Assembly (NCBI GenBank): GCA_027482905.1
Contig: JAIXVP010000091.1
Span: forward strand, 7,968 to 31,967
Length of the DNA stretch: 24,000 nucleotides
Origin: Opitutaceae bacterium
Lineage (GTDB): Bacteria; Verrucomicrobiota; Verrucomicrobiia; Opitutales; Opitutaceae
Reading direction: 5' to 3'
Position numbers and translations under genes: made by a program
Shown here: positions 4,174-19,573 of the stretch, piece by piece
Layout of the letters: each line of letters opens with the position of its first letter
Numbering within the stretch: the stretch's first letter is position 1
Notes under the pieces: generated by a model
Databases searched by the model: none
The model's input: the letters and a program-made list of their open reading frames with translations, nothing else
Told to the model about the DNA's origin: nothing

Positions 4174-4479
4174 TCAAAGCTCGACCACGCGGCGGGCGGG
4201 CTCGGCGTGGCGGCGGAAAAAGAGCGCGGTGTGGCCGACCGCGCCGACGCAGGGCGCGGCGCCCTCGGTCTCGATTCTCGCGATCAGCGCGGCGCGTTCG
4301 TGGCGGTCGGCGCCCTCGAAGCGGAGTTTCACCAGCTCGCGGGCCTCGATCAGGCGGGCGAATTCGCGATAAAAGGTCGGCGTGAGCCCGGCCTTGCCGA
4401 CCTTCAGGGCGGGCTCGGTGGTCTGGCCGATCCCGCGCAGGCGGGTTTTCTGCGCGGCGGTGAGCGGAGGGTTTTCCAT
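4174..4479 (-). CDS. yhbY: YhbY-like CRM-domain RNA-binding protein (ribosome assembly)
   Basis: LTAAQKTRLRGIGQTTEPALKVGKAGLTPTFYREFARLIEARELVKLRF...GHTALFFR matches the YhbY/CRS1 layout and is about 100 aa. The ATG at 4479..4477 (MENPPLT) was chosen; the track ORF starts at 4518. Confidence 0.8.
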   Translation of the reverse strand: MENPPLTAAQKTRLRGIGQTTEPALKVGKAGLTPTFYREFARLIEARELVKLRFEGADRHERAALIARIETEGAAPCVGAVGHTALFFRRHAEPARRVVEL

Positions 4480-4578
4480 GTGCGGGCCACGGTGGCGGGG
4501 CCGGCCGCCGAGGTCCAACCCCGAAGCGATCGCCCGGTCACCAGGCGAAAACGACCTCGGCGCGGACGAGGCGCGGCG

Positions 4579-5020
4579 CTACGGCGTGGTCACAATCACA
4601 CGGACAAAGGCCGGGGCGATCGAGAGTGCGGGGTGGATGCGGAGGGTGACCGTCTCGGTGACGCCGTCGGGGTTGGCGACTGTCGAGAGCACTTCGGGAG
4701 CGACGGCCGGGGCCGCCCAGGCGAGGAGGTCGGTCGACGTGACGACGGTGTAGGTAAGGCCGCCAGGATTGAGGAGGCGTCGGTGGGTGAAGACGAGGTG
4801 AGGCTGGCCCGTGGTGGGGTGGGCGGAGGTGACGCACGAGAGCGCGGCGGAGGCGTCGGTGACCTGAGGGTCGAGGCCGAAGGCGTATTCGAGCAGGTTG
4901 GATCGGCCGTCGCCATCGGGGTCGCCGAGGCGGCCGTGTTCGGCGAGGGACGAGGCGGGGTCGAGGCCGTGGGCGGTTTCCCAAGCGTCGGGGAGGCCGT
5001 CGGAGTCGGAGTCGGGGGGT
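4579..5020 (-). other. C-terminal module A: DSDSDGLPDAWE, then GDPDGDGRSNLLEYAFGLDP, then about 100 aa ending FVRVIVTTP
   Basis: Read from the translated C-terminus. The DPDGDG...LLEYAFGLDP coding stretch is at about 4867..4927. It is collinear with the C-terminus of the 14858..19573 protein. Confidence 0.6.
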
Positions 5021-8000
5021 GGCAAAACGGTGACGAGCGCGGCTTGGCTGTCGGCCGTGCCGAGGGCGTTGGTTACGCGAACCCAATAGCTGTTCGTGGT
5101 CGTGATGGGAGCGGTCACGTAGTTTGCGGAGGTGGCGCTCGCGATGGGCTGAGTCAGATCGCCGCTTAAGCCACGATACCATTGGTAGCTGGCCGTGATC
5201 GGACTTACGGCGGCGACGGTGAGCGAGACGACATCCCCGGCTTTCACCGTGCGAGAGGTGGGGTGGCTGGTAATGTTCGGAGGCGGTGATTGGAGAAATA
5301 GACTGTGGTAGTAGGCCAGCGACACGTCCAACACCGCGAGAGAGACCTGAACAGGGGTATAACGCCAAGCAGTGGTGCCGTCGCCATGTTGGCCGGCAAC
5401 GTTGTTGCCCATGGCCCAGAGACCGCCGTCGGTTTTGATGAACTTGCTGTGGTCGAAGCCCGCTGCGGCGTGCGTGATGCCGGTGGCGAGCTGGGTGGGT
5501 GTCATGTAGAGGCTGGTGTCGGGCAGGCCAAGCCCGATGCGGTAGCCCATGCCCAGAAGAACGCCTCCCCGTTTGATCAGCAGGGTATGTCCGCCGCCGG
5601 TGGCGACCGAAATGACGTCGGAGCTTATCTGAACGGGGCTTCGAATGTCGGTCGAGGTGCCATCGCCGAGTTGCCCGCCGTAGTTGTCACCCATGGCCCA
5701 GAGGGTGCCGTTGGTTTTGATGAAGAAGCTGCTTTGCCCGCGGGCTTCCACCCTGGAAACGCCCGCCGCGATTTGGACAGGCACCGTGCTGCCGGTGGCG
5801 GCGCCGATACCAAGCTGACCATCGAAATTGGTGCCCATGCCCCACATCGTGCCATCGTTCTTGACGAACAGCGTGTGAGTGTAACCGACGGCGAAGTGAG
5901 CCACCCCGGTGGCGATTTGAATCGGGGTCTGGATGTTGGAGGCGGAGCCGCTTCCCAGGCGCCAATAGCTGTTGTAGCCCATGCCCCAGAGGCTGCCGTC
6001 GGATTTCAGGAAAAGACTGATTTCGCTATCGGCGAAACACGCGATCACGTTGGTGGCCACTTGAACCGGGGTCAGGCGCGAGGTCGTGGTGGAGTCGCCG
6101 AGCTGGCCGTGGTTGTTGTTACCGACGGCCCAGAGCGTGGCGTTGGTTTTGATGAAGAGGGTGTGGCCGGAGCTGGTGGAGGCGGCGACGACATCGGTAG
6201 CGACCGAGACGGGCGCGTTGCGCTGGGTGGTGGTGCCATCGCCGAGCTGGCCATAGTCGTTTTGGCCGGAGGCCTTGAGGTTGAGGGCGGGGCGCGGGGT
6301 GACCGTGGCGGTGACGGTGTCGCTGTTGATGGCGGAGACGGGATTGCTGACCCGAACCCAGTAGCTGGTGGTGGCCAGAAGAGGAGGGGTGAGAAGCATC
6401 GGCCCGTTTGCGCCGGACACGGGCGCGGACGTGTCGCCCGAGAGGCCGCGATACCATTGATAGGAAAGCGTGCCGCCGGCGGCGCCGACGGCAAACGAGG
6501 CGGAGGCGAAAAAGGGCGTGGCAACCGGGACGGGCTGGGCCGTGATCGATGGCGGAGTGTTCAAGATCACCGTCACCGAGGCCGTGGTGCTGTCGGCGGT
6601 GAGGCCGAGGCTGTTGGTGACCCGGACCCAGTAGGACGTCGGCGCCGTCAGGGCTGGCGTGGTGAAACTGGCGCCGGTGGCGCCGGCCACGGGCGATGTC
6701 GTGCTGCCGGCCTGCCCCAGATACCACTGGTAAGTGAGTGGGGACTGGTCGTTGACGACCACGGACAAGGTGGTGCTTTCGCCGTAAAGAATCGACGCGG
6801 GCGCGGGCTGGGTGACGAAGGCCGGCTTCAGGCTGAAGAAGAAACTGAAAAAATTGCCGGGAACGGCGTTCCCGATGCCCGTGGCGACTTGCACCGGGAT
6901 TGCGCGGCTGGTGGTGGTGCCGTCGCCCAACGCGCCGGAGTAGTTGTTGCCCATGCCCCACAGGCTGCCGTTGGTCTTCAGAAAGAGGTTGTGGTAGTAG
7001 CCGGTGAAGACCTGGACGACGCCGGTGGAAATCTGCACCGGCGTGAGCCGATTCGTGTAGGTGCCGTCGCCCAGCTTGTTGTCGGTGTTCTGGCCCGAGG
7101 CCCAGAGCGAGCCGTCCGCTTTGATGAAGAAGCTGGTTCGGATGCCCGCGGCGATGCTCGTCACGCCGGTGTTCGTCAGCACCGGCGTGAGCCGGCTGTA
7201 GGAGGTGCCGTCCCCGAGCGCGCCTTCGTAATTGTAGCCCATGCCCCAGAGGGAACCGTCCACCTTGAGAAAAATGCTGTGATCCGAACCGGCGGCGCAT
7301 TGCACCACGCCGGTGGCGACCTGGATTGGCGTGGAGCGGCTGACGGTGGTGCCGTCGCCGAGCTGGCCGTAGATGTTTTCGCCCACGCTCCAGAGGGTGC
7401 CGTCGCTCTTCACAAAAAGGCTGTGTCGGTGGCCGGCGCTCATGTGCACGACCCCGGCGGCGATCTGGACGGGGCTGAGGCGGTCGGCGGTGGTGCCGCT
7501 GGCGAACCGGTTGTTCGCGTTGCTGCCCATGCCCCAGAGCGTGCCGTCGGTCTTCAGGAACAGGCTGTGTTCGCGGCCGGCCGACACCCGCGCAACCTGG
7601 CTGGAAATCTGCACCGCGGTGGAGCGGCTGGTGGTGGTGCCATCGCCGAGCTGGCCGTTGGCATTGTAGCCGGCGGCCCAGAGGGTGCCGTCCGATTTTA
7701 CGAAGAGGCTGTGCCCGTAGGCGGCCGAGGCGTGAGTCACCCCGGCGCCCACCGGCCGCGGCACAGTGGCCGAGCCGGCGGTGCCGTCGCCGAATTGGCC
7801 GGAGCCATTTGAGCCGGTGGCGAGCAGGTTGAAGCTTTGCGGTGAGGGCACGGTGACGGCCGCGGCGGTGCTGTCCACCGTTCCGCCGACCGTGGTGATG
7901 CGAACCCAGAACGAGGTGGTGGCGGTGAGCGAAGGCACCACCAAAAGGGCGCTGGTGGCGCCCACGACCGGCGCCGAAGTGTTTCCGATCGCGCCGCGAT

Positions 8001-11000
8001 ACCATTGATAGGTCGGCGAGCCGCCGGTGGCGGTCACGGTGAGGAACGCGTTGCGGGGGAAGAGCTGGGCGGTGGTGGAAGCGGGCTGGATGGTGATGGC
8101 CGGCGGGGCACCAATGGTGAGGGTCGCGGCCGTGCTGTCGGCCGTGCCGTGGGAATTGGACACGCGCACCCAGTAGGACGTGGTCGAGGTCAGGCCGGGT
8201 GGCGTGAAACTGGCGGCGGTGGCTCCGGCGACGGGCTGGGAGGTGTTACCCGCCGGTCCTCGAAACCACTGGTAGGCGAGCGGAGCCGGCCCTCCGGCCA
8301 CGACGAGCAGAGTGACGGTCTGGCCCGACAGCACGGTGGCGGAAGCGGGCTGACCGGTTATGCCGGGCTTGCGACTCAGCAACAAACTGTAACGGGAGGC
8401 GCCGGCGGTGTCGATCTGAACCGGGACGTAGCGATTGGTGGTGGTGCCATCGCCGAGCTGCCCGTTGACGTTGTAGCCGCAGGCCCAGAGCGAGCCGTCG
8501 GATTTAAGGAGAAAAACATGCAGGTCGCCCGCGAAGACGCGCCTGACCCCTGCGGCGAAATTGATGGGGGCGGTAAACACATTGCCCAGTTTCGGTCCTA
8601 TCTGGCCATAGTCGTTGTTGCCCAAGCCCCAGAGAGTGCCGTCCGTTTTCAGGTAGTAGTTGTTTCGTTCCCCGAGCGAGAAATCGATGACCTGGTCGGC
8701 GAGCTGGCGGGGCACGGGCCGGCTGGTCTGGGTGCCGTCGCCGAGCTGGCCATACCAGTTCCGCCCCATGGTCCAGAGGGTGCCGTCGGTCTTGAGGAAA
8801 AGCGTATGAAAGTAGCCGCCGCTTCGCACCGCCGCGACTCCGGACGCGACCTGGACGGGGACCGGGCGCCGGGTGGTGGTGCCATCGCCGAGCTGGCCTT
8901 CGGAGTTCCCGCCCACGCCCCAGAGCGTGCCGTCGGTTTTTAGGAACAGGGTGTTTTCCTGGCCCGCGGCGGCCTGAACGACGCCGGTGGCGAGCTGGAC
9001 CGGCGTGGCCCGGTCGGTGGTGGTGCCGTCGCCGAGCTGACCGGCGGTGTTGCGGCCCATCGCCCATAACGTGCCGTCCCTCTTCACAAACGTGCAGTGA
9101 TAAAACCCCATGGCGACGTGGGCGACATTGGTGGCGACCTGCACCGGTATGGAGCGGTCGGTGGATGTGCCGTCGCCGAGCTGGCCATAGCCGTTGTAGC
9201 CGCAGGTCCAGAGAGTGCCGTCGGATTTGAGGAAGGCCGTCTGACTCGAAGCCGAAACCTGGACCACATCGAAGACAGCCTGTGTCGGTGTGAGATGGTC
9301 GGTGGTGGTGCCGTCGGCGAGTTGTCCGCCGAAGTTTCCGCCCATGCCTTTGAGATTAAGCGCGGAGGAGGATTGCACCGCCACCGTCGCCCCGCTTTCG
9401 ACCGCGCCGACGTAGTTGGATACCCTTACCCAGAACGAACCGCCTTGGGTGAGGGGAGGAGTGAGGAACAGGGGGCCGGTCGCGCCCGCGACCGGCGCGG
9501 CGGTATCGCCAACAGCGCCGCGATACCATTGGTATGCGATGGTTCCGAAACCGCTCGCCTCGACCTTCAGCACGGCGTTCTCCATGGGGCCGACGGTCGA
9601 GTCGGACGGCGGCGCGAGGATCGTGGGCGGCGCCGGCCTCAGGACCGTAAGGAGCGTCGGGCGCGTGACGCTGCCCCGGCCATTGGTGAGATTGGCGATG
9701 GCAACGCCGTCGGTATAGGTGCCCTCCGGCAGGGTTCCGGCGGAGGGGGCCATGGTGACGGTGAGCGTGGTGGCGGCCCCGGGTGCGAGCTGACCGCCGG
9801 GAGATGAAAGGGTGAGCCAGGGCTGGGTCTTGAGCGCGGACCAGGTGATCGGAGTCTTGCTGAAGTTGGAGACGGTCCAAGTGGCGGAGGCGGGGTCGAA
9901 AGGCCCGCCGGCGGGACCGACGGGAGAGAATCCCGAAGGGCCGGCAACGAGTAGCTTGTCGAGCGCAAGCAGGGCCGAACGGGCGTTGAGGCGTCCGCCG
10001 GAAAGCGTGACGGAGGCGAGCGAGGGGCGGGGATCGACGGAGGAAAGCAGCAGGTGCTTCAACTGGGCGGCCGAAAGAGGCCCGGAGGCGTGTGAAAGCA
10101 CCAGCGCGGCGGTTCCGGCGACGTGGGGAGCGGCCATGGAGGTGCCGCTCATCGACTGATAGCCACCGTTGCGGACCGTGCTGTAGATGTTCAGACCTGG
10201 GGCGGCGAGATCGACGCTGGCGCCATAGTTGGAAAACACGGCGAGCTGATCGTCGTCGTCGGTCGCGGCCACCGAAACGATGTTGTCCAGTTCATAGCTG
10301 GCGGGGTAGCGCGGATCGAATTCCGAATCTATGCCATCGTTGCCGGCGCTGGCGACGAAGAGGCGCCCGGCCGCGCCTGCCGCGCCGATGGCGTCGCGCA
10401 GGGCCTGGGAGGAGCCGCCGCCGCCCCACGAGTTGGACGTCAGCTCGAAGCCCATGGCGGTGGCGTAGGAAACGGCCTCGACCGCGTCGGAGGTGAAGCC
10501 GGAACCGGGGGCGGAGAGAAATTTCAGGGGGACGAGGCTGACCTTCCAATTCACACCCACGACGCCGAGGGCATTTCCACCGACGGCGCCGATCGTGCCC
10601 GCGCAGTGGGTGCCGTGGTCATGGTCGTCCATGGGATCGTTGTCGTTGTTGAAAAAGTCCCAGCCATGCACGTCGTCCACGTAGCCGTTGCCGTCGTCAT
10701 CGACGAAGTTGCCGGCGATCTCGCCGGGGTTGGTCCAGATGTTGGCAGCGAGGTCGGGGTGGGTGTAGTCGATGCCGGTATCGATGACGCCGATCCGGAT
10801 GGAGCGGGAACCGGTGGCGATGTCCCAGGCTTCGGGGGCGTCGATATCGGCGTCGGCGGTGCCGCCGGTCTGGCCGGTGTTGTTCAGGCCGTAGAGTTGG
10901 GCGTAGGACGGGTCGTCGGGCGTGAGCGTCGTGTGGACGACAAAGTCCGGCTCGGCGATTTTCAGGAGGCCGCCGAGGTGGCGGAAATCGTCGATGGCGG

Positions 11001-11661
11001 CAGGAAGGGCGTCGAGGGTGCCGCCCGCAACGGCGACGAGCCAGGTGCCGGAGGCGGGTTTACTGGAGCGGACGGAACCTCCGGCGGCGGCGACGGCGGG
11101 CAGGAACGCCGCCTCGTCTACCCCGGGGGCGGGTTTGATGATGAGGTGGTCCGCCACCATGCCAAGCTGGGCGACGAGCGTGGCGCCGCCGGTGGCGGGA
11201 TCGAGTCGGTAAGCCTCCTCGAGACGGATAAAGGGATACTTTAGGCGGGCGTCGCGAACCAGCCGCACGCGCAGGCGCAGAGCGCGGTCGGGGAGGTCTT
11301 GCGCAGCCTCGGCAAGGACTTCGGCGCCGGCCCAGCGGTCGATCACGGCGGGCTTGGTCGATGAGGCGCGGAAATTGTCCGGCAGGCCCAAAAGACGCGG
11401 CAGGGGCTCCGGGGCGGGCGCGGCTCCGGGGACGGCAGGCGGGAGGGCGGCCGAGACAGGGCTCGCGGCCGGGGGAAGGACGGACACCGGCGTCGACGAA
11501 GCTCCGGCGGTCGTTGCGGTCGCCGGGGGCGGTGCGGGTTGGGAGGCGGCTAGCGAAATCGCCGGATTGCGCCGGGGTAGGGCCAACCAGAGACCTGCGA
11601 TACCTACGAGCAGGGCGAGCAGACCGGCGACGCCGCGGCGGGTGAAACGAGGGGAAGACAT
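4579..11661 (-). CDS. Giant (2360 aa) membrane-anchored or secreted S8 subtilisin-like serine peptidase with RCC1 beta-propellers and Ig-like domains
   Basis: The ATG is at 11661. The N-terminus has a hydrophobic anchor (GVAGLLALLVGIAGLWLAL) and a Pro/Ala-rich linker. A propeptide-like region ends in AEPDFVVH. The S8 triad motifs are GVIDTGIDYTHPDL, HGTHCAGTIGA and SGTSMAAPHVAG. These are followed by a beta-sandwich, six Ig-like domains with YQW[YF][RL]G, 21 RCC1-type blades (G.N..GQLGDGTT...P..V), and an Asp-rich C-terminal module. Confidence 0.9.
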   Translation of the reverse strand: MSSPRFTRRGVAGLLALLVGIAGLWLALPRRNPAISLAASQPAPPPATATTAGASSTPVSVLPPAASPVSAALPPAVPGAAPAPEPLPRLLGLPDNFRASSTKPAVIDRWAGAEVLAEAAQDLPDRALRLRVRLVRDARLKYPFIRLEEAYRLDPATGGATLVAQLGMVADHLIIKPAPGVDEAAFLPAVAAAGGSVRSSKPASGTWLVAVAGGTLDALPAAIDDFRHLGGLLKIAEPDFVVHTTLTPDDPSYAQLYGLNNTGQTGGTADADIDAPEAWDIATGSRSIRIGVIDTGIDYTHPDLAANIWTNPGEIAGNFVDDDGNGYVDDVHGWDFFNNDNDPMDDHDHGTHCAGTIGAVGGNALGVVGVNWKVSLVPLKFLSAPGSGFTSDAVEAVSYATAMGFELTSNSWGGGGSSQALRDAIGAAGAAGRLFVASAGNDGIDSEFDPRYPASYELDNIVSVAATDDDDQLAVFSNYGASVDLAAPGLNIYSTVRNGGYQSMSGTSMAAPHVAGTAALVLSHASGPLSAAQLKHLLLSSVDPRPSLASVTLSGGRLNARSALLALDKLLVAGPSGFSPVGPAGGPFDPASATWTVSNFSKTPITWSALKTQPWLTLSSPGGQLAPGAATTLTVTMAPSAGTLPEGTYTDGVAIANLTNGRGSVTRPTLLTVLRPAPPTILAPPSDSTVGPMENAVLKVEASGFGTIAYQWYRGAVGDTAAPVAGATGPLFLTPPLTQGGSFWVRVSNYVGAVESGATVAVQSSSALNLKGMGGNFGGQLADGTTTDHLTPTQAVFDVVQVSASSQTAFLKSDGTLWTCGYNGYGQLGDGTSTDRSIPVQVATNVAHVAMGFYHCTFVKRDGTLWAMGRNTAGQLGDGTTTDRATPVQLATGVVQAAAGQENTLFLKTDGTLWGVGGNSEGQLGDGTTTRRPVPVQVASGVAAVRSGGYFHTLFLKTDGTLWTMGRNWYGQLGDGTQTSRPVPRQLADQVIDFSLGERNNYYLKTDGTLWGLGNNDYGQIGPKLGNVFTAPINFAAGVRRVFAGDLHVFLLKSDGSLWACGYNVNGQLGDGTTTNRYVPVQIDTAGASRYSLLLSRKPGITGQPASATVLSGQTVTLLVVAGGPAPLAYQWFRGPAGNTSQPVAGATAASFTPPGLTSTTSYWVRVSNSHGTADSTAATLTIGAPPAITIQPASTTAQLFPRNAFLTVTATGGSPTYQWYRGAIGNTSAPVVGATSALLVVPSLTATTSFWVRITTVGGTVDSTAAAVTVPSPQSFNLLATGSNGSGQFGDGTAGSATVPRPVGAGVTHASAAYGHSLFVKSDGTLWAAGYNANGQLGDGTTTSRSTAVQISSQVARVSAGREHSLFLKTDGTLWGMGSNANNRFASGTTADRLSPVQIAAGVVHMSAGHRHSLFVKSDGTLWSVGENIYGQLGDGTTVSRSTPIQVATGVVQCAAGSDHSIFLKVDGSLWGMGYNYEGALGDGTSYSRLTPVLTNTGVTSIAAGIRTSFFIKADGSLWASGQNTDNKLGDGTYTNRLTPVQISTGVVQVFTGYYHNLFLKTNGSLWGMGNNYSGALGDGTTTSRAIPVQVATGIGNAVPGNFFSFFFSLKPAFVTQPAPASILYGESTTLSVVVNDQSPLTYQWYLGQAGSTTSPVAGATGASFTTPALTAPTSYWVRVTNSLGLTADSTTASVTVILNTPPSITAQPVPVATPFFASASFAVGAAGGTLSYQWYRGLSGDTSAPVSGANGPMLLTPPLLATTSYWVRVSNPVSAINSDTVTATVTPRPALNLKASGQNDYGQLGDGTTTQRNAPVSVATDVVAASTSSGHTLFIKTNATLWAVGNNNHGQLGDSTTTSRLTPVQVATNVIACFADSEISLFLKSDGSLWGMGYNSYWRLGSGSASNIQTPIQIATGVAHFAVGYTHTLFVKNDGTMWGMGTNFDGQLGIGAATGSTVPVQIAAGVSRVEARGQSSFFIKTNGTLWAMGDNYGGQLGDGTSTDIRSPVQISSDVISVATGGGHTLLIKRGGVLLGMGYRIGLGLPDTSLYMTPTQLATGITHAAAGFDHSKFIKTDGGLWAMGNNVAGQHGDGTTAWRYTPVQVSLAVLDVSLAYYHSLFLQSPPPNITSHPTSRTVKAGDVVSLTVAAVSPITASYQWYRGLSGDLTQPIASATSANYVTAPITTTNSYWVRVTNALGTADSQAALVTVLPPPDSDSDGLPDAWETAHGLDPASSLAEHGRLGDPDGDGRSNLLEYAFGLDPQVTDASAALSCVTSAHPTTGQPHLVFTHRRLLNPGGLTYTVVTSTDLLAWAAPAVAPEVLSTVANPDGVTETVTLRIHPALSIAPAFVRVIVTTP
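5020..9640 (-). repeat. Three tandem supermodules of about 1.5 kb, each encoding Ig-like domain, 7-bladed RCC1 propeller, Ig-like domain
   Basis: Approximate unit bounds are 8110..9640, 6560..8107 and 5020..6559. I counted 7 blades in each propeller from the translated protein. YQW[YF][RL]G markers lie near 9520, 8265, 8000, 6725, 6455 and 5180. A 20-nt exact repeat gccgcgataccattgatagg occurs at 6445..6464 and 7993..8012. Otherwise the units look diverged. Confidence 0.8.
9980..10860 (-). other. S8 peptidase catalytic domain within the giant ORF (approximate bounds)
   Basis: I mapped the catalytic codons by hand. Asp294 is at 10782..10780 (IDTG), His349 at 10617..10615 (HGTH) and Ser508 at 10140..10138 (GTSMA). 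The Asn of the oxyanion region is consistent with SNSWGG. Confidence 0.85.
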
Positions 11662-11938
11662 GCGACGGCGGGCTCGACCAGTTTATTAAGTAGATTTAGT
11701 CAGACCCGACTGGGAACAGAATGCAGCCGGCTTACAAGTATCTTACCGCATGACACATCGGTTAAATGGGAAAACACGGTTGTTTGCACACTTGTCTGTG
11801 GCTTCGGTCCGCAAAAACGGAGAATCCGAAGAAAACCCACACATGGACACGCCTGTCCGGGCCGCATCGAAAAGAGTGGAATCACGGGTTGGAATGCGGC
11901 GCGAAGGAGGATTTAGAAAACCAATCCCAAACCATCCC
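11662..11938. promoter_or_regulatory. Divergent intergenic region between the S8 giant gene (minus) and the SIMPL gene (plus); presumably holds both promoters
   Basis: This 277-nt stretch is conspicuously more AT-rich than anything else in the window (ttattaagtagatttagtcag...). It contains an imperfect hairpin at 11802..11831 (cttcgg-tccg-caaaaa-cgga-gaat-ccgaag). I could not call confident -35/-10 boxes. Confidence 0.4.
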
Positions 11939-12649
11939 ATGATCACCACCCGCTCCTTCGCCGTGCTCGGCGCCTTTCTGGCCATAGGACTGGCGATTTT
12001 TGGGTATCAAGTCGGGCGGGCAGTGAAGCTGGGGCGGGAGTTCGACCGGTATTTTACCGTGCGTGGTCTGTCCGAGCGGGAGGTCAAGGCGACCCTCGTC
12101 ATCTGGCCCATGCGCACCATCGCGACCGGCGAAACTCTGGCCGAGTTGCAGGCCTCCATTGCGGACGCCAAGGCCGTCGTGACCGCTTTCCTGCACGAAA
12201 ACGGCGTGCCGCAGGAGGAGATCATTTATGGCCTGCCGGATATCAGCGACACCATCGGCTCGCGAAAGAAGGACGATGTGGTGGTCCTGCCCCGCTACAA
12301 CGCCACGATCATCCTGGTGGTCCGCAGCCGGAATGTGGACCTGGTGAAGAGCGCCATACAAAAATCGGAAGCGCTGATCGCGAAGGGCGTGCCGCTGGCG
12401 AACCCGGAATACGGCCAGCGGGTTTCCTTCGAGTTCGACGGCGTGAACGCGCTCAAGCCCGCCATGATCCAGGAGGCGACAGCCAACGCCCGGCAAGCGG
12501 CGGAGAGATTCGCCGAAGACTCGCAGGCGGAGGTCGGGGCGATCCGCAAGGCGACGCAAGGGGTGGTGGACATTCAGGACCGCGACATCGCGTCACCTGA
12601 ACTCAAAATCGTGCGCGTCGTCACGACGGTGGAGTTTTTCATCAAGTAG
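11939..12649 (+). CDS. SIMPL-domain (DUF541, YggE-like) protein with an N-terminal membrane anchor
   Basis: The ATG at 11939 gives MITTRSFAVLGAFLAIGLAIFGYQVG (anchor). It is followed by FTVRGLSEREVKATLVIWP and a C-terminal GAIRKATQGVV...V.V.F, typical of SIMPL-domain proteins of about 236 aa. The track ORF start at 11750 was rejected because it adds 63 aa with no support. Confidence 0.75.
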   Translation: MITTRSFAVLGAFLAIGLAIFGYQVGRAVKLGREFDRYFTVRGLSEREVKATLVIWPMRTIATGETLAELQASIADAKAVVTAFLHENGVPQEEIIYGLPDISDTIGSRKKDDVVVLPRYNATIILVVRSRNVDLVKSAIQKSEALIAKGVPLANPEYGQRVSFEFDGVNALKPAMIQEATANARQAAERFAEDSQAEVGAIRKATQGVVDIQDRDIASPELKIVRVVTTVEFFIK

Positions 12650-12663
12650 ACCGACGGCCTTGT

Positions 12664-14736
12664 TCACCACGCGTAGGAGAGTTCTGCGCGGATGAGACGG
12701 GGCGGGGCGAGGCCCACCACGCCGCCGGCGGTGCGACCGGTCTGGGTCTCGGCGTCGAGCAGGTTTTCCACCGCGAAGGTGAGCCGTAGGCGGGGCGTGG
12801 GGGAAACGTGGACGGCGAGGTCGAGCCGCGTCGAAGGCGCGAGGGCGAGGGTGTTCAAATCGTCCTCGTATTGGGCCGAGACGCTGCGGATGCGCAGGTC
12901 GAGATCGAGAACGCGCGCGGCCCGCCAGGTCGCGCCGGCGGACAGGGTGTGGCGGGGCACTTGGGCGAGGCGTTTGCCGTCAAGGGCGTCGGCGCCGGGA
13001 CCGCCGGAGCGCACCCGGGCGTCGGACAGCAGATAGTCGGCGTCGAGCCGCAAGGCGGGGATGGGTTGCCAACGGCCGCCGAGTTCGAGACCGCGCACGC
13101 GGACGGCGTCAAGATTGCGGCGCTCGCGCAGAGTCGGGGAGAGCGAGACGTTCGCGACCGCGTCGGCGAGGTCGTTCTGGAACACGGTCGCTCGCAGGGC
13201 GTGGCGGGCGGCGGGCGGCGCGTATTCGAGGCCGACCTCGCCGCCAAACAGCGTCTCGGGATCGAGGGCGGGGTTGGCCTGGGTCGTGACGGGACCGACG
13301 CGAAAGGGCCGGTAAAGCTCGTTCAAGGTCGGCGTGCGGTAGGCGGAGTAGGCGGCGGCGCGGGCGGTGATCGCGGGCGTAGCGCGCCAGGCGAGGCCAA
13401 GGCTGGGCGAAAAGGCGAGGTCCTCGCGGCCGGCGTAGGTCTCGTCCAGCAGGCGGGCGCCGGTGGCGCGGGTGGTCTCGCGGCGAAAGCCGTCCGCGCG
13501 GGTGGTGGAGTCGAGGCGCGCGCCGCCGGTGAGGACCAGGCCGTCGGTGAGCGGGCGGGCGTGGGTGGCGAAGACGCCGGCCGTGGTCTGCGCGCCGCCG
13601 GCCCGCCGCTCGCGGGTGAAAGCGCCCGCATTGTAGAAAAAATACTCGCGGGTCTCGCCGTCCACCCGGCGGGCGTCGATGCCGAGGGTGGTGAGGGAAG
13701 CGTCGCCGTCGGCGAGCGCGGCGGGGTCGCCCCAAGCCGCCTGGACGGAGACGCCGGCGGCGGTGGAAGGCACCGCGTATTGGTCGCTCGCCGGGGTCTC
13801 GACCGTGCGGGCGGCGTTGATCGCGCCGAAGGTGCTTTGAAAATCCTGCCGCTGCGCGTGAAGCGAGACCGACCAGGCGGGGCCCCCGGGGGCGGCGCCG
13901 GCGAGGGTGGCGGCGACGGAGGCCTCGTCGGAGGCGTTGCGCTGGTAGGGCGTGCCGTTGCCACGCTCCTCGCGCCAGGCGCGGGCGACGGCGGTCAGCG
14001 TGGTGGTTTCGTCGATACGGCGGGCCCAGGTTAACTGCCCGCGCCGGTGCTCGGAATCGGCGGCGAGGTCGACCGGGCCGGGATCGCGGACGAGGCGGGG
14101 GCCGGCGGTGGAGAAGGCGGCGGCTTCGACCCGGAAGGCATCGCGGCCGGAGGCGGTCCCGAGCGTGGCGGTGGTGTCGATGGCGCGGGTCTCGAAATCC
14201 CCGACCGTGGCGGAAACCGCGCCGCCCGTCGGCGCGTCGAGCGGGGACGCGGAGATCAACTGCACCACGCCCCCGAGTGAGGCGCCGCCCCAGGCGGCCG
14301 AGCCGCCGCCGCGCACCAGCTCCACACTTTCCAGCGAGGCGGAAGGAAGTTTGGACCAGGCGACCCAGCCGCCGAAGGGGTCGTTGACCGGCACGCCGTC
14401 GAGCAGCACGAGGGCGCGGCTGGCGCCGCTCGGGCCGATGCCGCGCAGGGAAACGCCTTGCGCGGTAGGATTGGCGGTCAGGGAGCCGGCGCGGCGGAAG
14501 AGCGAAAAGGCGGCGGAGCGGCGCAGGGCGTCGTCGAGGACGAGCGCCGGCCCGTTGCGCAGGGTTTCGGCCGAGAAAACATCCACCGTCAGCGGTAGCG
14601 TAGTCGGCTCCTGCGGCAGGCGGGTAGCGGTGACGACGACGGGCGGCAGCGGGGTGGGCGCGGACTCCTCCGCCCGGGAAAGCGGAAGGCAGACGGCGAC
14701 TAGGCAGGCCAGAAACACGGGACGCGGGGTGGGCAC
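12664..14736 (-). CDS. TonB-dependent outer-membrane receptor, substrate unknown
   Basis: The GTG start at 14736 gives the signal peptide MPTPRPVFLACLVAVCLPLSRA. A TonB-box-like PPVVVTATR is present. Plug motifs are GVSLRGIGPSGASRALVLLDGVPVNDPFGG. The long beta-barrel region ends in the terminal aromatic ...AELSYAW. Confidence 0.9.
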   Translation of the reverse strand: MPTPRPVFLACLVAVCLPLSRAEESAPTPLPPVVVTATRLPQEPTTLPLTVDVFSAETLRNGPALVLDDALRRSAAFSLFRRAGSLTANPTAQGVSLRGIGPSGASRALVLLDGVPVNDPFGGWVAWSKLPSASLESVELVRGGGSAAWGGASLGGVVQLISASPLDAPTGGAVSATVGDFETRAIDTTATLGTASGRDAFRVEAAAFSTAGPRLVRDPGPVDLAADSEHRRGQLTWARRIDETTTLTAVARAWREERGNGTPYQRNASDEASVAATLAGAAPGGPAWSVSLHAQRQDFQSTFGAINAARTVETPASDQYAVPSTAAGVSVQAAWGDPAALADGDASLTTLGIDARRVDGETREYFFYNAGAFTRERRAGGAQTTAGVFATHARPLTDGLVLTGGARLDSTTRADGFRRETTRATGARLLDETYAGREDLAFSPSLGLAWRATPAITARAAAYSAYRTPTLNELYRPFRVGPVTTQANPALDPETLFGGEVGLEYAPPAARHALRATVFQNDLADAVANVSLSPTLRERRNLDAVRVRGLELGGRWQPIPALRLDADYLLSDARVRSGGPGADALDGKRLAQVPRHTLSAGATWRAARVLDLDLRIRSVSAQYEDDLNTLALAPSTRLDLAVHVSPTPRLRLTFAVENLLDAETQTGRTAGGVVGLAPPRLIRAELSYAW

Positions 14737-14857: not shown

Positions 14858-17800
14858 GTGAGAATACCCCCGCTCATTGCCGCAGCCTTGTCGTCGTTAT
14901 TGTTGGGCCCGGCCGCGCACGCCGTGCCCGCGTTTCCCGGCGCGGAGGGATTTGGCGCCAACGCCAAGGGCGCCCGGGCCTCGGCCAGCCCCACCGTCTA
15001 CCGCGTCACCAACCTGAACGATTCCGGCGCCGGCTCGCTCCGCGACGCGGTGAGCGCCTCCGGCCGCGTGGTGGTTTTTGATGTCGGCGGCATCATCCGG
15101 GTGGGCTCCCCGATCGTCTTCGCCTCCAATCTCACCATCGCGGGCCAGACCGCGCCGGGCGGCGGCGTCACCCTCTACGGCAACCGCGTGTCCTTTTCCG
15201 GCGCGAACAACACGATCTGCCGTTACGTGCGTTTCCGCATGGGCATCGACGGGGACGACGGCGCGGACGCGGTCGGCATAGCCAACGGCAGCGACATGAT
15301 CTTCGACCACGTATCCGCTTCCTGGGGACGCGACGAGACCTTCTCCATCAGCGGCGACGCCGCCATCCGCATCACGCTCCAGGACTGCCTGATCGCCCAG
15401 GGCCTGCGCATCCACTCCGCCGGCGGCCTGATGCAGACCTCCGGGGGCGTGAGCATTTTCCGCACGCTCTACGCCGACAACTACATGCGCAACCCCAAGG
15501 TCAAGGGGGTGAACGACTACGTGAACAACGTGGTCTACAACTGGGGTTCCGGCGGCGGCTACATCCCGGCGGGCGATTCGGCCGGCGACTCGTTCGCCAA
15601 CGTGGTGAAGTGCTACTTCATCGGCGGACCCGAATCCGGGGTCGGCCGTTCCCCTTTCACGTCGGGCAACACCAACTACCGTCTCTTCCACACGGGCAAC
15701 CTCCAGGATCTAGACCTCGACGGCGTGCTCGATGGCGTCGCGGTGACCAACACGAGTTTCCCTACCCTCCAGCTCGTCGGCACGCGCTTTGCCTACCCCG
15801 CGCCGACGACCGAACTCTCCGCCCCCGCCGCGCTCGCCTGGGTGTTGGATCGGGCCGGCGCCTCGCACCGCCGCGACCGCACGGACGATTACGTGGTGGC
15901 GGAGGCCCGCACCTACGGCACCGGCGGCGTCTTTATCTACGACGAAGCCGACATGGGCGGCGTCGGCACCGTCGCCGCCGGCCTGAAGCAACCCGACAAC
16001 GACAACGACGGCATGCCGGACTGGTGGGAACAGGCCGCCGGGACCAACCCCGCCGTCGCCGACGCGACCGTGCTCGGCGCCGACGGTTACCTGAACATCG
16101 AACGCTACCTCAACGCCCTCGTGGTCGGCGGCGTGCCCGGGGCCTTCATCACCGGCATCACGAGCGACACCGGCGCGTCCGCCTCCGACGGAATCACCTC
16201 CGACCGAATGCTCGTGCTGCGCGGCACCGCGCCCGTCGGATCCAGCGTTTCCCTGGCCCGCGCCGACCTCGGCGTGCTCGGCACGGTCGTCGCCGACGCG
16301 AACGGGCAATGGACCTACGATTACGCCGCCACGTCGCTGGCCGACCGGGTGTATGCGTTCACCGCCGGCGCCACGGTGGGCGGAGTCGTCACTCCGCCGT
16401 CGCCCGCGCTGGTCGTTCGTATCGACACCGTCGCCGCCCCCGCCCCGGCGATCACGGGCTTGAGCCTGGCCCCGGGGGCGGCGGTTTCCGGCACCGCCAC
16501 GCCGGGCGACACCGTTGCCGTAACCCTCGCCGGACAAGTGGTGGCCACCGGCGTGGCCGACGAGTTGGGCAACTGGACCGCGCCCTACACCGGACCCGCC
16601 CTCGGCGCGGGGCAAAAGACCTTTACCGCCGCCGCGACCGATCTGGCCGGCAATCCCGGCCCGGCCTCCGGCGCCTACGTCGTGGACACCGGCCTGGCCG
16701 CGCCGGTTTTCACCGCGATCAGCACCGACAGCGGCGCGTCCGCCTCCGACCGCCTGACCAACGACGCCACGCTGGTGTTGTCCGGCACCGCGCCGGCCGG
16801 CGCGACCGTCAGCGTCACTCGCGCGGGCGTCGGCGTCGTGGGCTCCGCGGTCGCGACCGGCGGCGCGTTTTCGTTCAGCTACGCCGCGACCACGCTGCCG
16901 GCCGGGACGCACACCTTCACCGCCACCGCCGGGCTCGCGGGTTCCGCCAGCCCGGTGTCCGCGCCCTTCGTGGCGACGATCGACACCACCGCCCCCGCCA
17001 TCGCCTCCCTGCGCCGACTCACGCCCGCGACCTACTCGACCAACGGCGGCGGCGTGGTCTACCGGGTCACCTTCGCCGAGCCCGTCACCGGCGTGGACTT
17101 GGCCGACTTCACGCTCACCCGGTCGGGCACCGCCGGCTCGCTCGCCTCGGTCGCGACGGTGAGTTCGACCGTCTACGACGTCTCCGCCGCGAATCTATCC
17201 GGCGACGGCACCGCGCGGCTGGACCTCAGCGCCAGCGGCACCGGCATCCTCGACCTCGCGGGCAACGCCGTCTCCGGCGGCTACACCGCCGGGCAAGCCT
17301 ACACCGTCCGCCTCGCCGGCAGCGGCGTCTGGATAAACCTCGATAATGACGGCCTCTGGAGCGACTCCGCCAACTGGGACGGCGGCCTACTCGCCGGCGC
17401 CACCGGCGCCACCGCCGACTTCGGCCTGCGCGATCTCGTCGCGAACACCACGCTGATCCTCGACTCCAATCGCACCCTAGGGCGTATCGTTTTCGGCGAT
17501 ACCGATTTCTCCACGCCGGCCGGCTGGACGGTCTCCGACGGCGGCGTTTCCTCACGTGTCCTCACCTTGGACGGCACCTCCACGCCGGTCATCCAGGTTG
17601 ACGCCGCCACCACGCCGGCCGGGGACACCACCGACGTCCCCGCCGCCAACGCCACCCCGCACCACCTCGCCGTCGCCCTGGCGGGCGGGAAGGGCTTCAC
17701 CAAAACGGGCGTCGGCACCTTGGAGCTGAACCGCCCCAACCCCGCGCTCGCCGGTGCGCTGACCATCTCGAAGGGCATCGTCCAGGTCGGCCCCGGCGGC

Positions 17801-19573
17801 ACGCTCGCGCCCGCCTCGGTGAGTATCGCCACCTCGCAACAACTCCGCGTCACGGGCGGCGCGTTCACCACCGCCGGCAACGTCTCGTGGACCTCCGGCA
17901 CCGGCACGGGCGTTATCGTGAGCGCCGGAACCGCGAGTTTCCAAAACATCGTGCCGTCCAACGCGCGCAACAGCTTCCTCCGCGTCACCGGCGGCGTGGT
18001 CACCGCGAAGGACCTTAACTTCCCCCGCAGCGGCGACTCGGAGGCACAGACCAGCGGGACCGGCGTATTGATTTCCGGCGGCGACACGACCTTCGCGAAC
18101 ATCGGCCTGGGCACAGTCGACTCGTGGGCCGGCATGACCATCTCGGGCGGAAAACTCACCGTGACCGGCACCCTGCACAACGGTTACCAGAAGACCGCCG
18201 GGCGCGGCGGGGTGATTTACCTTTCCGGCGGCGAACTCGCCGTGACCGGCGCGACCAACGGCCTGGTGATGGCGCGCAACCCCGGCGGCACGAACGCCAA
18301 CACCAACAACGTCGCCAAATTGATCATCACCGGCGGCGCCGCCAATCTCGCCAAACTCACGCTCGGCTACGACGCGACCTCGAGCGCCGGCTCCGCGAGC
18401 GTCACCGTGAGCACCGGAGAGCTGAACCTCGGCGCCGGCGGCATCGTGAAAAACGGCGCGGCGGGGCTCGCCTCCTCGTTGTCCTTCGCCAGCGGGACCC
18501 TCGGCGCCCTGGCCGACTGGAGCACCACGCATCCGCTTTCGATCACCGATACCTCCGCCACGCCGCTCTTCTCGATCCGCGCCGCCGGACCCGACGGCGC
18601 GCCGCACGACATCGCGCTGAACGGCGTCGTCTCCGGTGCGGGCGGCTTCAACAAGACGGGCGGCGGCACGCTGACCCTCTCCGCCGCCAACGCGGTGGCG
18701 GGCAACATCCACGTCAACGCCGGCACGCTCAACCTCACCGGCTCCCTCGCCGCCGCCTCCGGCCGGTCCCTCGTGGTCAACGCCGGCGGCACGCTCGCCG
18801 GCACCGGCACCTCGAACGTCCTGCTCGGCTTGTTCCCGGGCGGCACGGTCTCCCCGGGCGGAAACGCGGCGGGAACGCTCACCGTGGCGGGCGGGCGGAT
18901 CTCCGGCGGCTCCACCCTGCGTTTCAACCTGGGCGCGGGCGGCGACCAACTGGTCATCCCGAGCGGCTTTACCTATTTCGGTTCCGGCCCGGTGACCTTC
19001 GCCTTCACCCCGGGAACGCTCGTGGTTGGCACACCCTACACTTTGATCACCACGCCCGGCGGAACCGCCGGCATCACGACCGCCAACCTCGCCTACACCG
19101 GCTTGGGCTACGGCAAGGGGCACTTCACGATCGGAACGAGCGGCATCCAGTTCACGTTGGACGACGACGGGGTCGCGCTGGCGCCGTTCTACGATTGGTT
19201 GACCGGACGCGGGCTGGCCGCCGACCCGGCCGCCGCGACGGGCGATCCCGACGCCGACGGCATGGCGACGCTGCTCGAGTTCGTGTTCGGCCAGGATCCG
19301 CTGCTGCCCGACGTGGCGCAGCTACTCGCCACCACCATCGTGGCGAACCAGGAGACGTATCCGGCGATCAGTTACCGACGTCGCCGGGGCCGGGGTGGCA
19401 TTGCCGTGGCGGTCGAGGCCGCGCGCGACCCGGGTTTCGTCACCCCGCTGGCGCTGGTGGACGTATCGGCCCCGGCCGAGCCGGACGGCTTCGACCGTGT
19501 GCTGGTGCGCACGGCGCTGCCGATGTCGAGCGAGGCGCGTCAGTTTTTCCGCGTCCGGGCCAGCTTGCCCTGA
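14858..19573 (+). CDS. Giant (1571 aa) secreted PL1-like pectate-lyase-fold protein fused to bacterial Ig-like repeats and autotransporter-associated beta-strand repeats
   Basis: The GTG at 14858 gives the signal peptide MRIPPLIAAALSSLLLGPAAHA. The N-terminal domain is AFPGAEGFGANAKG...VYRVTNLNDSGAGSLRDAV...LTIAGQTAPGGGV...RYVRFR...IFDHVSASWGRDE...MRNPKVKG..YVNNVVYNW, the pattern of PL1-type pectate lyases. It is followed by DNDNDGMPDWWE, adhesin-type Ig repeats, GFTKTGVGTLELN and GFNKTGGGTLTLS repeats, and a C-terminal module. Confidence 0.85.
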   Translation: MRIPPLIAAALSSLLLGPAAHAVPAFPGAEGFGANAKGARASASPTVYRVTNLNDSGAGSLRDAVSASGRVVVFDVGGIIRVGSPIVFASNLTIAGQTAPGGGVTLYGNRVSFSGANNTICRYVRFRMGIDGDDGADAVGIANGSDMIFDHVSASWGRDETFSISGDAAIRITLQDCLIAQGLRIHSAGGLMQTSGGVSIFRTLYADNYMRNPKVKGVNDYVNNVVYNWGSGGGYIPAGDSAGDSFANVVKCYFIGGPESGVGRSPFTSGNTNYRLFHTGNLQDLDLDGVLDGVAVTNTSFPTLQLVGTRFAYPAPTTELSAPAALAWVLDRAGASHRRDRTDDYVVAEARTYGTGGVFIYDEADMGGVGTVAAGLKQPDNDNDGMPDWWEQAAGTNPAVADATVLGADGYLNIERYLNALVVGGVPGAFITGITSDTGASASDGITSDRMLVLRGTAPVGSSVSLARADLGVLGTVVADANGQWTYDYAATSLADRVYAFTAGATVGGVVTPPSPALVVRIDTVAAPAPAITGLSLAPGAAVSGTATPGDTVAVTLAGQVVATGVADELGNWTAPYTGPALGAGQKTFTAAATDLAGNPGPASGAYVVDTGLAAPVFTAISTDSGASASDRLTNDATLVLSGTAPAGATVSVTRAGVGVVGSAVATGGAFSFSYAATTLPAGTHTFTATAGLAGSASPVSAPFVATIDTTAPAIASLRRLTPATYSTNGGGVVYRVTFAEPVTGVDLADFTLTRSGTAGSLASVATVSSTVYDVSAANLSGDGTARLDLSASGTGILDLAGNAVSGGYTAGQAYTVRLAGSGVWINLDNDGLWSDSANWDGGLLAGATGATADFGLRDLVANTTLILDSNRTLGRIVFGDTDFSTPAGWTVSDGGVSSRVLTLDGTSTPVIQVDAATTPAGDTTDVPAANATPHHLAVALAGGKGFTKTGVGTLELNRPNPALAGALTISKGIVQVGPGGTLAPASVSIATSQQLRVTGGAFTTAGNVSWTSGTGTGVIVSAGTASFQNIVPSNARNSFLRVTGGVVTAKDLNFPRSGDSEAQTSGTGVLISGGDTTFANIGLGTVDSWAGMTISGGKLTVTGTLHNGYQKTAGRGGVIYLSGGELAVTGATNGLVMARNPGGTNANTNNVAKLIITGGAANLAKLTLGYDATSSAGSASVTVSTGELNLGAGGIVKNGAAGLASSLSFASGTLGALADWSTTHPLSITDTSATPLFSIRAAGPDGAPHDIALNGVVSGAGGFNKTGGGTLTLSAANAVAGNIHVNAGTLNLTGSLAAASGRSLVVNAGGTLAGTGTSNVLLGLFPGGTVSPGGNAAGTLTVAGGRISGGSTLRFNLGAGGDQLVIPSGFTYFGSGPVTFAFTPGTLVVGTPYTLITTPGGTAGITTANLAYTGLGYGKGHFTIGTSGIQFTLDDDGVALAPFYDWLTGRGLAADPAAATGDPDADGMATLLEFVFGQDPLLPDVAQLLATTIVANQETYPAISYRRRRGRGGIAVAVEAARDPGFVTPLALVDVSAPAEPDGFDRVLVRTALPMSSEARQFFRVRASLP
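14924..15870 (+). other. Pectate-lyase (PL1-like) right-handed beta-helix catalytic domain (approximate bounds)
   Basis: Motifs are as listed for the parent CDS. The FDH.SASW..DE and RNP.....NN..YNW segments correspond to the conserved vWiDH and RxPxxR regions of PL1, with Lys at the second basic position (RNPKVK). Confidence 0.65.
16147..16990 (+). repeat. Three adhesin-type bacterial Ig-like repeats
   Basis: Repeats 1 and 3 are clearly homologous: ITSDTGASASDGITSDRMLVLRGTAPVGSSVSLAR...GQWTYDY and ISTDSGASASDRLTNDATLVLSGTAPAGATVSVTR...GAFSFSY. An exact 18-nt repeat ggcgcgtccgcctccgac lies at 16172..16189 and 16733..16750. The middle repeat is GTATPGDTVAVTLAGQVVATGVADELGNWTAPY. Confidence 0.7.
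17330..19120 (+). repeat. Beta-helix region with autotransporter-associated beta-strand repeats (approximate bounds)
   Basis: It shows recurrent Gly/Thr/Ala-rich beta-strand periodicity. Hallmark units are GKGFTKTGVGTLELNRPNPALAGALTISKGIVQV (about 17686..17810) and GAGGFNKTGGGTLTLSAANAVAGNIHVNAGTLNLTG (about 18637..18750). Confidence 0.65.
19175..19573 (+). other. C-terminal module B: GDPDADGMATLLEFVFGQDP, then about 95 aa ending FFRVRASLP
   Basis: Collinear with module A of the S8 giant protein: GDPDGDGRSNLLEYAFGLDP vs GDPDADGMATLLEFVFGQDP, and AFVRVIVTTP vs QFFRVRASLP. Confidence 0.6.

Follow-up and report, generated by a model that had tools for sequence, protein, structure and literature searches.

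What would a subtilisin-type protease gain from 1,790 C-terminal residues of non-catalytic beta modules? This question is raised by a gene located in a stretch of 24,000 nucleotides (hereafter the window) on contig JAIXVP010000091.1 of an Opitutaceae bacterium. The gene is a single open reading frame (ORF) at 4579..11661 on the minus strand (stop codon at 4579-4581), and its product, P0001, has 2,360 amino acids (aa). Two full-length orthologues were found: P0002 (75% identity, 2,364 aa, on a 267-kb ENA contig) and P0003 (60% identity, 2,353 aa, from a metagenome-assembled genome (MAG) labelled Verrucomicrobiota CSMAG_1311). The gene product is an exported subtilisin-type protease with a long arm made of three old cassettes, each composed of an immunoglobulin-like (Ig) domain, a RCC1-like propeller and a second Ig domain. 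Its function is most likely multivalent binding of a substrate or target by a deseasin-like protease.

The protein contains, in order, an N-terminal hydrophobic segment, a Pro/Ala linker, a pro-region, the S8 catalytic domain, a BACON-like domain, the three Ig-propeller-Ig cassettes and a tail with calcium loops and a beta-sandwich. Hidden Markov models (HMMs) built from the protein's own domains recover the order N-S8-B-I-P-I-I-P-I-I-P-I-C. When the whole protein is scanned, Pfam reports Peptidase_S8 (residues 287-542), WD40_RLD (PF25390, 637 bits; RLD for RCC1-like domain), RCC1 (16 stretches), RCC1_2 (15 stretches), Ig_7 (6 stretches) and also Ig_3. Nothing besides S8, RCC1/RLD and Ig is found at E 0.01; hence no RTX repeats are reported. 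A preliminary description, made from the sequence alone, had placed the repeated block at 5020-9640 and had proposed a check with the Pfam RCC1, RCC1_2, Peptidase_S8 and Ig-like models; all these families are called. The block corresponds to residues ~675-2214, i.e., to Ig1 to Ig6 (5026-9633).

The blade repeats, counted by regular expressions and alignment, number 21, i.e., seven per propeller with a spacing of 48 aa. Each propeller segment was also scanned alone with PF25390 (a RLD model of 363 positions, cut-off 150). Propeller 1 (residues 764-1096, 8374..9372; the coordinates of all parts of the gene refer to the minus strand) obtains 220 bits in one stretch covering model positions 5-346. 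Propeller 2 (residues 1273-1610, 6832..7845) obtains 317 bits in two stretches, the best one covering positions 52-345. Propeller 3 (residues 1790-2124, 5290..6294) is the most diverged, with 193 bits in one stretch covering positions 4-363. In propellers 2 and 3, the seven repeats are also marked by their blade anchors. RCC1 (PF00415) is called, above its cut-off, in 6, 7 and 6 stretches in propellers 1, 2 and 3, respectively. Since this repeat model is offset from the blades, the 19 calls agree with 21 blades when one split repeat is allowed for in each closed ring.

Six YQW[YF][RL]G motifs are present at residues 710, 1130, 1218, 1644, 1734 and 2159, and the Ig_7 profile (PF19081, CHU_C-associated Ig-like domain) matches each of the six flanking domains. 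The latter are of a pre-propeller type (Ig1, Ig3 and Ig5) or a post-propeller type (Ig2, Ig4 and Ig6), as assigned by the trees described below. When scanned alone (cut-off 27.3), Ig1 (residues 677-763, 9373..9633), Ig2 (1097-1184, 8110..8373), Ig3 (1185-1272, 7846..8109) and Ig6 (2125-2212, 5026..5289) reach 27.7, 37.1, 33.1 and 28.5 bits, respectively. The best Ig_7 stretch of Ig4 (1611-1701, 6559..6831) is 1618-1698, and Ig5 (1702-1789, 6295..6558), with the motif at residue 1734, is one of the six Ig_7 stretches. The 21 RCC1-type blades of about 48 aa arranged as three seven-bladed propellers, and the order Ig-P-Ig-Ig-P-Ig-Ig-P-Ig with its motif, both stated in the preliminary description, are thus borne out by the profiles, the repeat spacing, the six motifs and the home-built HMMs.

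Unit 1 (residues 677-1184) was modelled by AlphaFold2 (AF2) from an alignment of 27 rows, with a mean predicted local distance difference test (pLDDT) of 92.6 and a predicted TM score (pTM) of 0.85. In the model, DSSP identifies seven four-stranded sheets, the blade number given in the preliminary description, and two complete Ig sandwiches, those of Ig1 and Ig2. Blade 7, the last one, is completed by the strand with which the propeller begins (model residues 92-98). The top Foldseek matches of the unit in PDB are all seven-bladed RLDs, i.e., UVR8, RCC1, RPGR and HERC1/2, with a target-normalised TM score of ~0.8 and a root-mean-square deviation of 2.2-3.2 Å; BLIP-II (3qi0) is found at rank 49 (E 4.9e-16). 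The same RLD families are obtained by a PDB sequence search with the propeller. The model thus shows a closed seven-bladed fold for propeller 1. The same closed fold is predicted for propellers 2 and 3 from their seven repeats at 48-aa spacing. The possibility of a propeller inserted into one split Ig domain was considered and rejected: both flanking Ig domains are complete in the profiles and in the model.

The catalytic head is well defined. The S8 domain (residues 248-570, 9952..10920) reaches 194.4 bits with Peptidase_S8 (PF00082, cut-off 21.8) over residues 287-542. The catalytic set is complete, in the order Asp-His-Ser with the oxyanion Asn: D294 (VIDTG), H349 (HGTH), N441 (AGND) and S508 (GTSMA). 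The closest solved sequence is the catalytic domain of deseasin MCP-01 (3vv3_A, E 2.5e-106, 360 bits), aligned from residue 248 to ~568 and ~60% identical by eye; the next PDB sequence match, 1dbi, is far behind (1.9e-46). The head belongs, on sequence grounds, to the deseasin/MCP-01 branch of S8A, and proteolytic activity is predicted. The identity of the S8 domain to those of the orthologues is 89% and 72%. It is followed by a beta domain (residues 571-676, 9634..9951) resembling BACON_2 (PF19190), with 24 bits for a cut-off of 25; this family is on record for P0002 and for P0004 and P0005, two paralogues described below.

Upstream of the head, residues ~10-28 (11578..11634), read from the sequence, form the sole hydrophobic segment, and a comparable helix occurs in all three orthologues. 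It is predicted to be a Sec signal or a signal-anchor, without a clear AXA cleavage site. A linker rich in Pro and Ala follows (residues 29-100, 11362..11577), with 18 Pro and 17 Ala in 72 residues. Between the linker and residue 248, where the alignment with mature deseasin begins, lie ~150 residues (~101-247, 10921..11361) presumed to be the subtilase pro-region. This is the part least conserved among the orthologues (42-48%). Residues 40-270 give no Pfam match when scanned separately, and the pro-region gives no match among PDB sequences.

The location of the hydrophobic segment bears on the anchoring of the enzyme. Subtilases normally cut off their pro-region; the N-terminal propeptide is a folding chaperone, removed autocatalytically. 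Because the hydrophobic segment is located upstream of the pro-region and mature deseasin aligns from residue 248, normal subtilase autoprocessing would detach the enzyme from this segment. The earlier proposal of a membrane-anchored subtilase is not supported for the mature enzyme: the sole hydrophobic segment would be lost if maturation proceeds as in other subtilases. Anchoring by the N-terminal helix is doubtful, and any tethering would come from the C-terminal tail.

This tail (residues 2213-2360, 4582..5025) is composed of TSP3-like calcium loops and a beta-sandwich of ~90 aa. Its motif is a calcium loop ADPDxDGxxNLLEYAxGxDP followed by the sandwich, which ends with RRFLRLxV; the last strand of P0001 is a variant of this ending. 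In a two-round HMM search of the six-frame ORFs of the genome, the last ~120 residues are found in 63 ORFs, and 58 of the 63 carry the tail within 8 residues of the stop, typically ending with RRFLRLxV-x-P. One of the tail-bearing proteins is a neighbour in the window, an exoprotein of 1,571 aa at 14858-19573 (tail at 19181-19570, plus strand), and 56 further ORFs lie elsewhere in the genome. The AF2 model of the tail (pLDDT 90.2) shows the calcium loop and a six-strand sandwich. In PDB, Foldseek finds no fold match at E<=0.001, the remaining matches being generic Ig-like ones at E>0.01. Neither Pfam nor NCBIfam assigns a family to the tail, and the hints of TSP3, DUF3999 and F5/8-type-C are all sub-threshold; when the last 148 residues are scanned alone, Pfam gives only a weak bacterial TSP3 repeat. 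The tail matches neither model of the C-terminal domain of type IX secretion system (T9SS) cargo in Pfam or NCBIfam (Por_Secre_tail, PF18962/TIGR04183). A profile search of 1.84 billion representatives gives 50,621 matches at E<=0.001, part of which reflects the TSP3 loops. Among the best 150, the near-full-length matches are C-terminal in 106 of 119 cases (89%). Nothing relevant was found in the literature on a C-terminal sorting domain of Verrucomicrobia. The tail is an uncatalogued Verrucomicrobia domain.

How would these parts work together? On balance, we lean towards an exported, self-maturing deseasin-like protease with an Ig stalk, three sideways binding propellers and a tail that would dock to the envelope or to a shared target. 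In this scheme: (i) the protein would be exported by the Sec pathway and would then lose, by autocatalysis, the pro-region together with the N-terminal hydrophobic segment; (ii) the six Ig domains would form a continuous stalk from which the three propellers hang off sideways, a geometry suggested by the model, in which entry and exit of the chain fall in one and the same blade, and by the shortness of the linkers (~6-10 residues between domains); (iii) the propellers would act as exosites keeping the protease in contact with a protein-rich substrate, polymeric or particulate, or with the surface of another cell, by analogy with the collagen-binding PKD domain of deseasin; (iv) the tail would serve for docking, either to the cell envelope or to a common target, in this enzyme as in the other 57 tail-ending ORFs. 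Multivalent capture, already proposed in the preliminary description, is plausible. The propellers appear to be constrained beyond the role of a spacer, since their identity between orthologues is 84%, 81% and 68% (propellers 1, 2 and 3, the last value being that of propeller 3 against P0002), as compared with 89% for the S8 domain and 48% for the pro-region. The resemblance of the unit 1 model to protein-binding RLDs (UVR8, RCC1, RPGR, HERC2, BLIP-II) also counts in favor of this scheme.

Several points weigh against it. The pro-region matches no family in Pfam or among PDB sequences. To our knowledge, no ligand has been reported for bacterial extracellular RLDs of this type. The loop positions that vary from blade to blade are also the least conserved between orthologues (three-way identity 0.24-0.48), and no conserved blade-specific binding surface is visible among the three orthologues, the only ones available. 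The geometry of stalk and side propellers is drawn from the topology and the pTM alone. Finally, the TonB-dependent receptor gene next to the protease gene is kept in only 2 of the 3 orthologous loci.

The variability of the loops also speaks for another reading, in which the Ig and propeller modules have no specific ligand and are only a rigid spacer, or a scaffold resembling a surface layer, holding the head away from the cell. This reading also draws on the reuse of the same cassette in protease-free giants and on the free exchange of the middle region (DUF11, LapA-like or RLD modules) within the family. However, bulky propellers mounted on the side are a poor choice for pure length, for which Ig repeats alone suffice in adhesins; the best-matching solved RLDs are platforms binding proteins or peptides; and the propeller cores are 68-84% conserved between orthologues. 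A purely structural arm is considered improbable.

According to a second alternative, the protein would be a polyprotein whose S8 domain cuts its own arm and frees the Ig-propeller-Ig units, e.g., as BLIP-II-like binders or inhibitors of foreign enzymes. Such autoproteolysis was raised in the preliminary description, BLIP-II has the same fold (3qi0, E 4.9e-16), and the suggestion that giant proteins may be cut into smaller products by S8 domains at their N-terminus has been made in a preprint (bioRxiv 10.1101/2023.11.21.568195). On the contrary, the linkers, at ~6-10 residues, are very short and unit 1 is a single compact body in the model; no conserved cleavage motif is seen; the cassette also exists in giants lacking any protease; and the tail, at the far end, would be parted from the head. 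We regard this self-processing as unlikely. The same low credence is given to a device that would capture and cleave for competition or predation and not for nutrition, each propeller being tuned to a different foreign target, as BLIP-II is for beta-lactamases, and the tail docking on the Opitutaceae surface.

The three units measure 508, 517 and 511 aa, i.e., ~1.5 kb each, as had been described. Between units, identity is 45-49% for the protein, 58-61% for the DNA and ~50% at third codon positions. The exact repeats shared by the units are short, in agreement with the preliminary description; the longest words are of 27-28 nt and out of register, and not of 20 nt as it had given. Tandem Repeats Finder (TRF) detects no tandem array in the gene, and the repeat search shows a blade period of 144 nt at only 60-76% identity.

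The three orthologues, which come from independent assemblies, have the same domain order and count. In the tree, the propellers group by position (P1, P2, P3) across the three orthologues, with values of 98-100 in the Shimodaira-Hasegawa-like approximate likelihood ratio test (SH-aLRT). The Ig domains split into a pre-propeller set (1, 3, 5) and a post-propeller set (2, 4, 6). In a wider tree, a single clade (SH-aLRT 95) unites the pre-propeller Ig domains of P0001-P0005 with those of a paralogue on contig C430. From these groupings it follows that the repeated unit is Ig(pre)-propeller-Ig(post), tripled en bloc before the orthologue lineages split. The units have not been homogenised since the triplication. 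An old duplication, and not a recent recombining one, had been proposed, and the positional clustering agrees with it. It may be asked whether the three units could come from a repeat expanded or collapsed during metagenome assembly, the source MAG (4.35 Mb) being fragmented (457 contigs, 87% complete); this artefact is excluded for practical purposes, since the units share only 58-61% of their DNA with no exact word above 27-28 nt and no TRF array, orthologues exist for each unit separately, the proteins of the independent assemblies measure 2,360, 2,364 and 2,353 aa with identical domain order (one of them on a 267-kb contig) and the gene is located mid-contig (32 kb).

Is this architecture unusual, as had been claimed? 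The claim was overstated. RLDs are present, in various orders, in 22 of 125 large S8 relatives, several of which bear the JGI name "RCC1 family protein/subtilisin family serine protease", and S8+RCC1 fusions are encountered repeatedly, in several phyla. Thousands of bacterial proteins contain RLDs: a search with one unit gives 7,920 of 8,000 candidates at E<=1e-10. In these matches, RLDs are found together with FN3, T9SS tails, dockerins and RHS, among others, and several show the Ig-RLD-Ig arrangement. Such cassettes also exist in other proteins of the same genome. In distant S8+RLD proteins, Ig arrays and propellers are found in other orders.

The nearest paralogues are P0004, P0005 and an ORF of 4,068 aa in a genome of the same genus (G019:C53); the head (pro-region, S8, BACON-like) and the tail are in common with P0001. 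P0004 and G019:C53 hold one Ig-RLD-Ig cassette each, together with DUF11, LapA-like and extra BACON modules, and P0005 holds a similar cassette; their pre- and post-type Ig domains group with those of P0001. Among these giants, the triplicated cassette is found only in P0001, P0002 and P0003. A full-length match is found in none of 24 species genomes of the same genus and, in a scan using a limited pattern set, in only one other species genome among 185,579. The triple cassette is a rare elaboration of a recurrent theme, and the protein is an uncharacterised but not unique variant of it.

Comparison with the same genus shows how the middle region varies. At two loci, L114 (the 4,068-aa ORF G019:C53) and L115 (G017:C8, an ORF of 3,331 aa), the pro-S8-BACON head is 58% identical and the tail 56-60%. 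The middle regions are wholly different (DUF11, LapA-like, Glucodextran_B), with one Ig-RLD-Ig cassette or, in G017:C8, none. Because the loci are non-syntenic, these genes are paralogues and not swaps in situ. The S8 giants form a head-and-tail family with interchangeable passengers.

In the genome of P0001 itself, giants in which no protease domain was found are observed as well. C430 (2,676 aa, locus L009) has the tail of P0001 and carries two Ig-RLD-Ig cassettes besides BACON-like domains. C81 (L012) and C16 (L010), both cut by contig ends, have a different array with a single Ig domain between propellers. C160 (L011) and C377 (L013) are further giant ORFs with RCC1-like propellers; some such ORFs are cut by contig ends.

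Concerning the neighborhood, the contig of P0002 (L113) shows the order TonB-dependent receptor, S8 giant, YhbY, RsgA, with the receptor directly upstream on the same strand after a gap of 126 nt. The window contains the same genes, plus a SIMPL gene on the opposite strand (11750-12649) between the receptor and the S8 giant. The receptor, upstream of the S8 giant, is at 12664-14736 (minus strand); its counterpart on L113 is at 5788-7875 (plus strand). On the contig of P0003, the upstream region differs and the receptor is not present. An operon linking the receptor and the S8 giant was considered and set aside as weak, the adjacency being absent at P0003 and broken by the SIMPL gene in the window. 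A functional pair of receptor and protease is possible but weakly supported. The downstream flank is conserved and marked by RsgA and by a small YhbY/CRS1 gene (CRM domain, 4174-4518, minus strand), located between RsgA and the S8 giant as on the contig of P0002. The neighboring RsgA protein is 87-88% identical to proteins of "Opitutaceae bacterium" and "Verrucomicrobia bacterium" and shares 69% identity with the RsgA of Rariglobus hedericola; because of these identities the organism is considered an uncultured Opitutaceae. Long ORFs in other frames or strands also occur within the S8 gene, e.g., 5305-7812 (plus strand) and 6119-8005 (minus strand); such overlapping frames are what a high G+C content (63-68% here) produces.

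In soil and fresh water, Verrucomicrobia play a major part in polymer degradation, and secreted subtilases with substrate-binding appendages are central to particulate protein turnover. The closest known system is deseasin MCP-01 of Pseudoalteromonas sp. SM9913 (PDB 3vv3), which has the closest solved catalytic domain. It is a pre-pro enzyme, as P0001 is presumed to be, and it too carries non-catalytic modules on the C-terminal side. This S8 enzyme is collagenolytic; its C-terminal PKD domain attaches to insoluble collagen, makes it swell and improves efficiency (PMC11294657). MCP-01, however, is smaller (~66 kDa), its modules being a P-domain and a single PKD domain, whereas P0001 has instead a BACON-like domain, six Ig domains, three propellers and a tail, i.e., ~1,790 extra residues; P-proprotein and PKD domains of the deseasin type give no Pfam match in P0001.

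The propellers themselves resemble the RLDs of RCC1, UVR8, RPGR, HERC1/2 and Streptomyces BLIP-II, which are likewise seven-bladed, with repeats of 48-51 residues and closure by a terminal strand. They differ from them by their predicted extracytoplasmic location, by their number (three per chain) and by being bracketed by Ig domains on a protease. Concerning the proposed geometry, the same principle is seen in the RTX fibrillar adhesins AhLap, FrhA and MpIBP, in which binding modules project sideways from an Ig-like stalk, the entry and exit of the chain being at a single point of the module (PMC12077191); in P0001 this topology comes from the model. Unlike these adhesins, P0001 has two complete flanking Ig domains and not one split domain, has no RTX family among its Pfam hits and carries a protease head. 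The RCC1-repeat giants of Oscillospiraceae are also bacterial extracellular proteins with many RCC1 propellers per chain (bioRxiv 10.1101/2023.11.21.568195). Nevertheless, the latter lack a protease and contain little else than RCC1 repeats, whereas the three propellers described here are well separated, bracketed by Ig domains and borne by a S8 enzyme.

The Ig-propeller-Ig cassette, taken as a whole, behaves as if portable: it can be copied inside a single gene and is common to proteases and non-protease giants. A tractable three-propeller protease would be a reasonable system in which to seek the ligand of a bacterial extracellular RCC1-like propeller. The protein is an elaboration of the known design of a protease plus binding modules, and similar S8+RCC1 fusions already exist in public databases.

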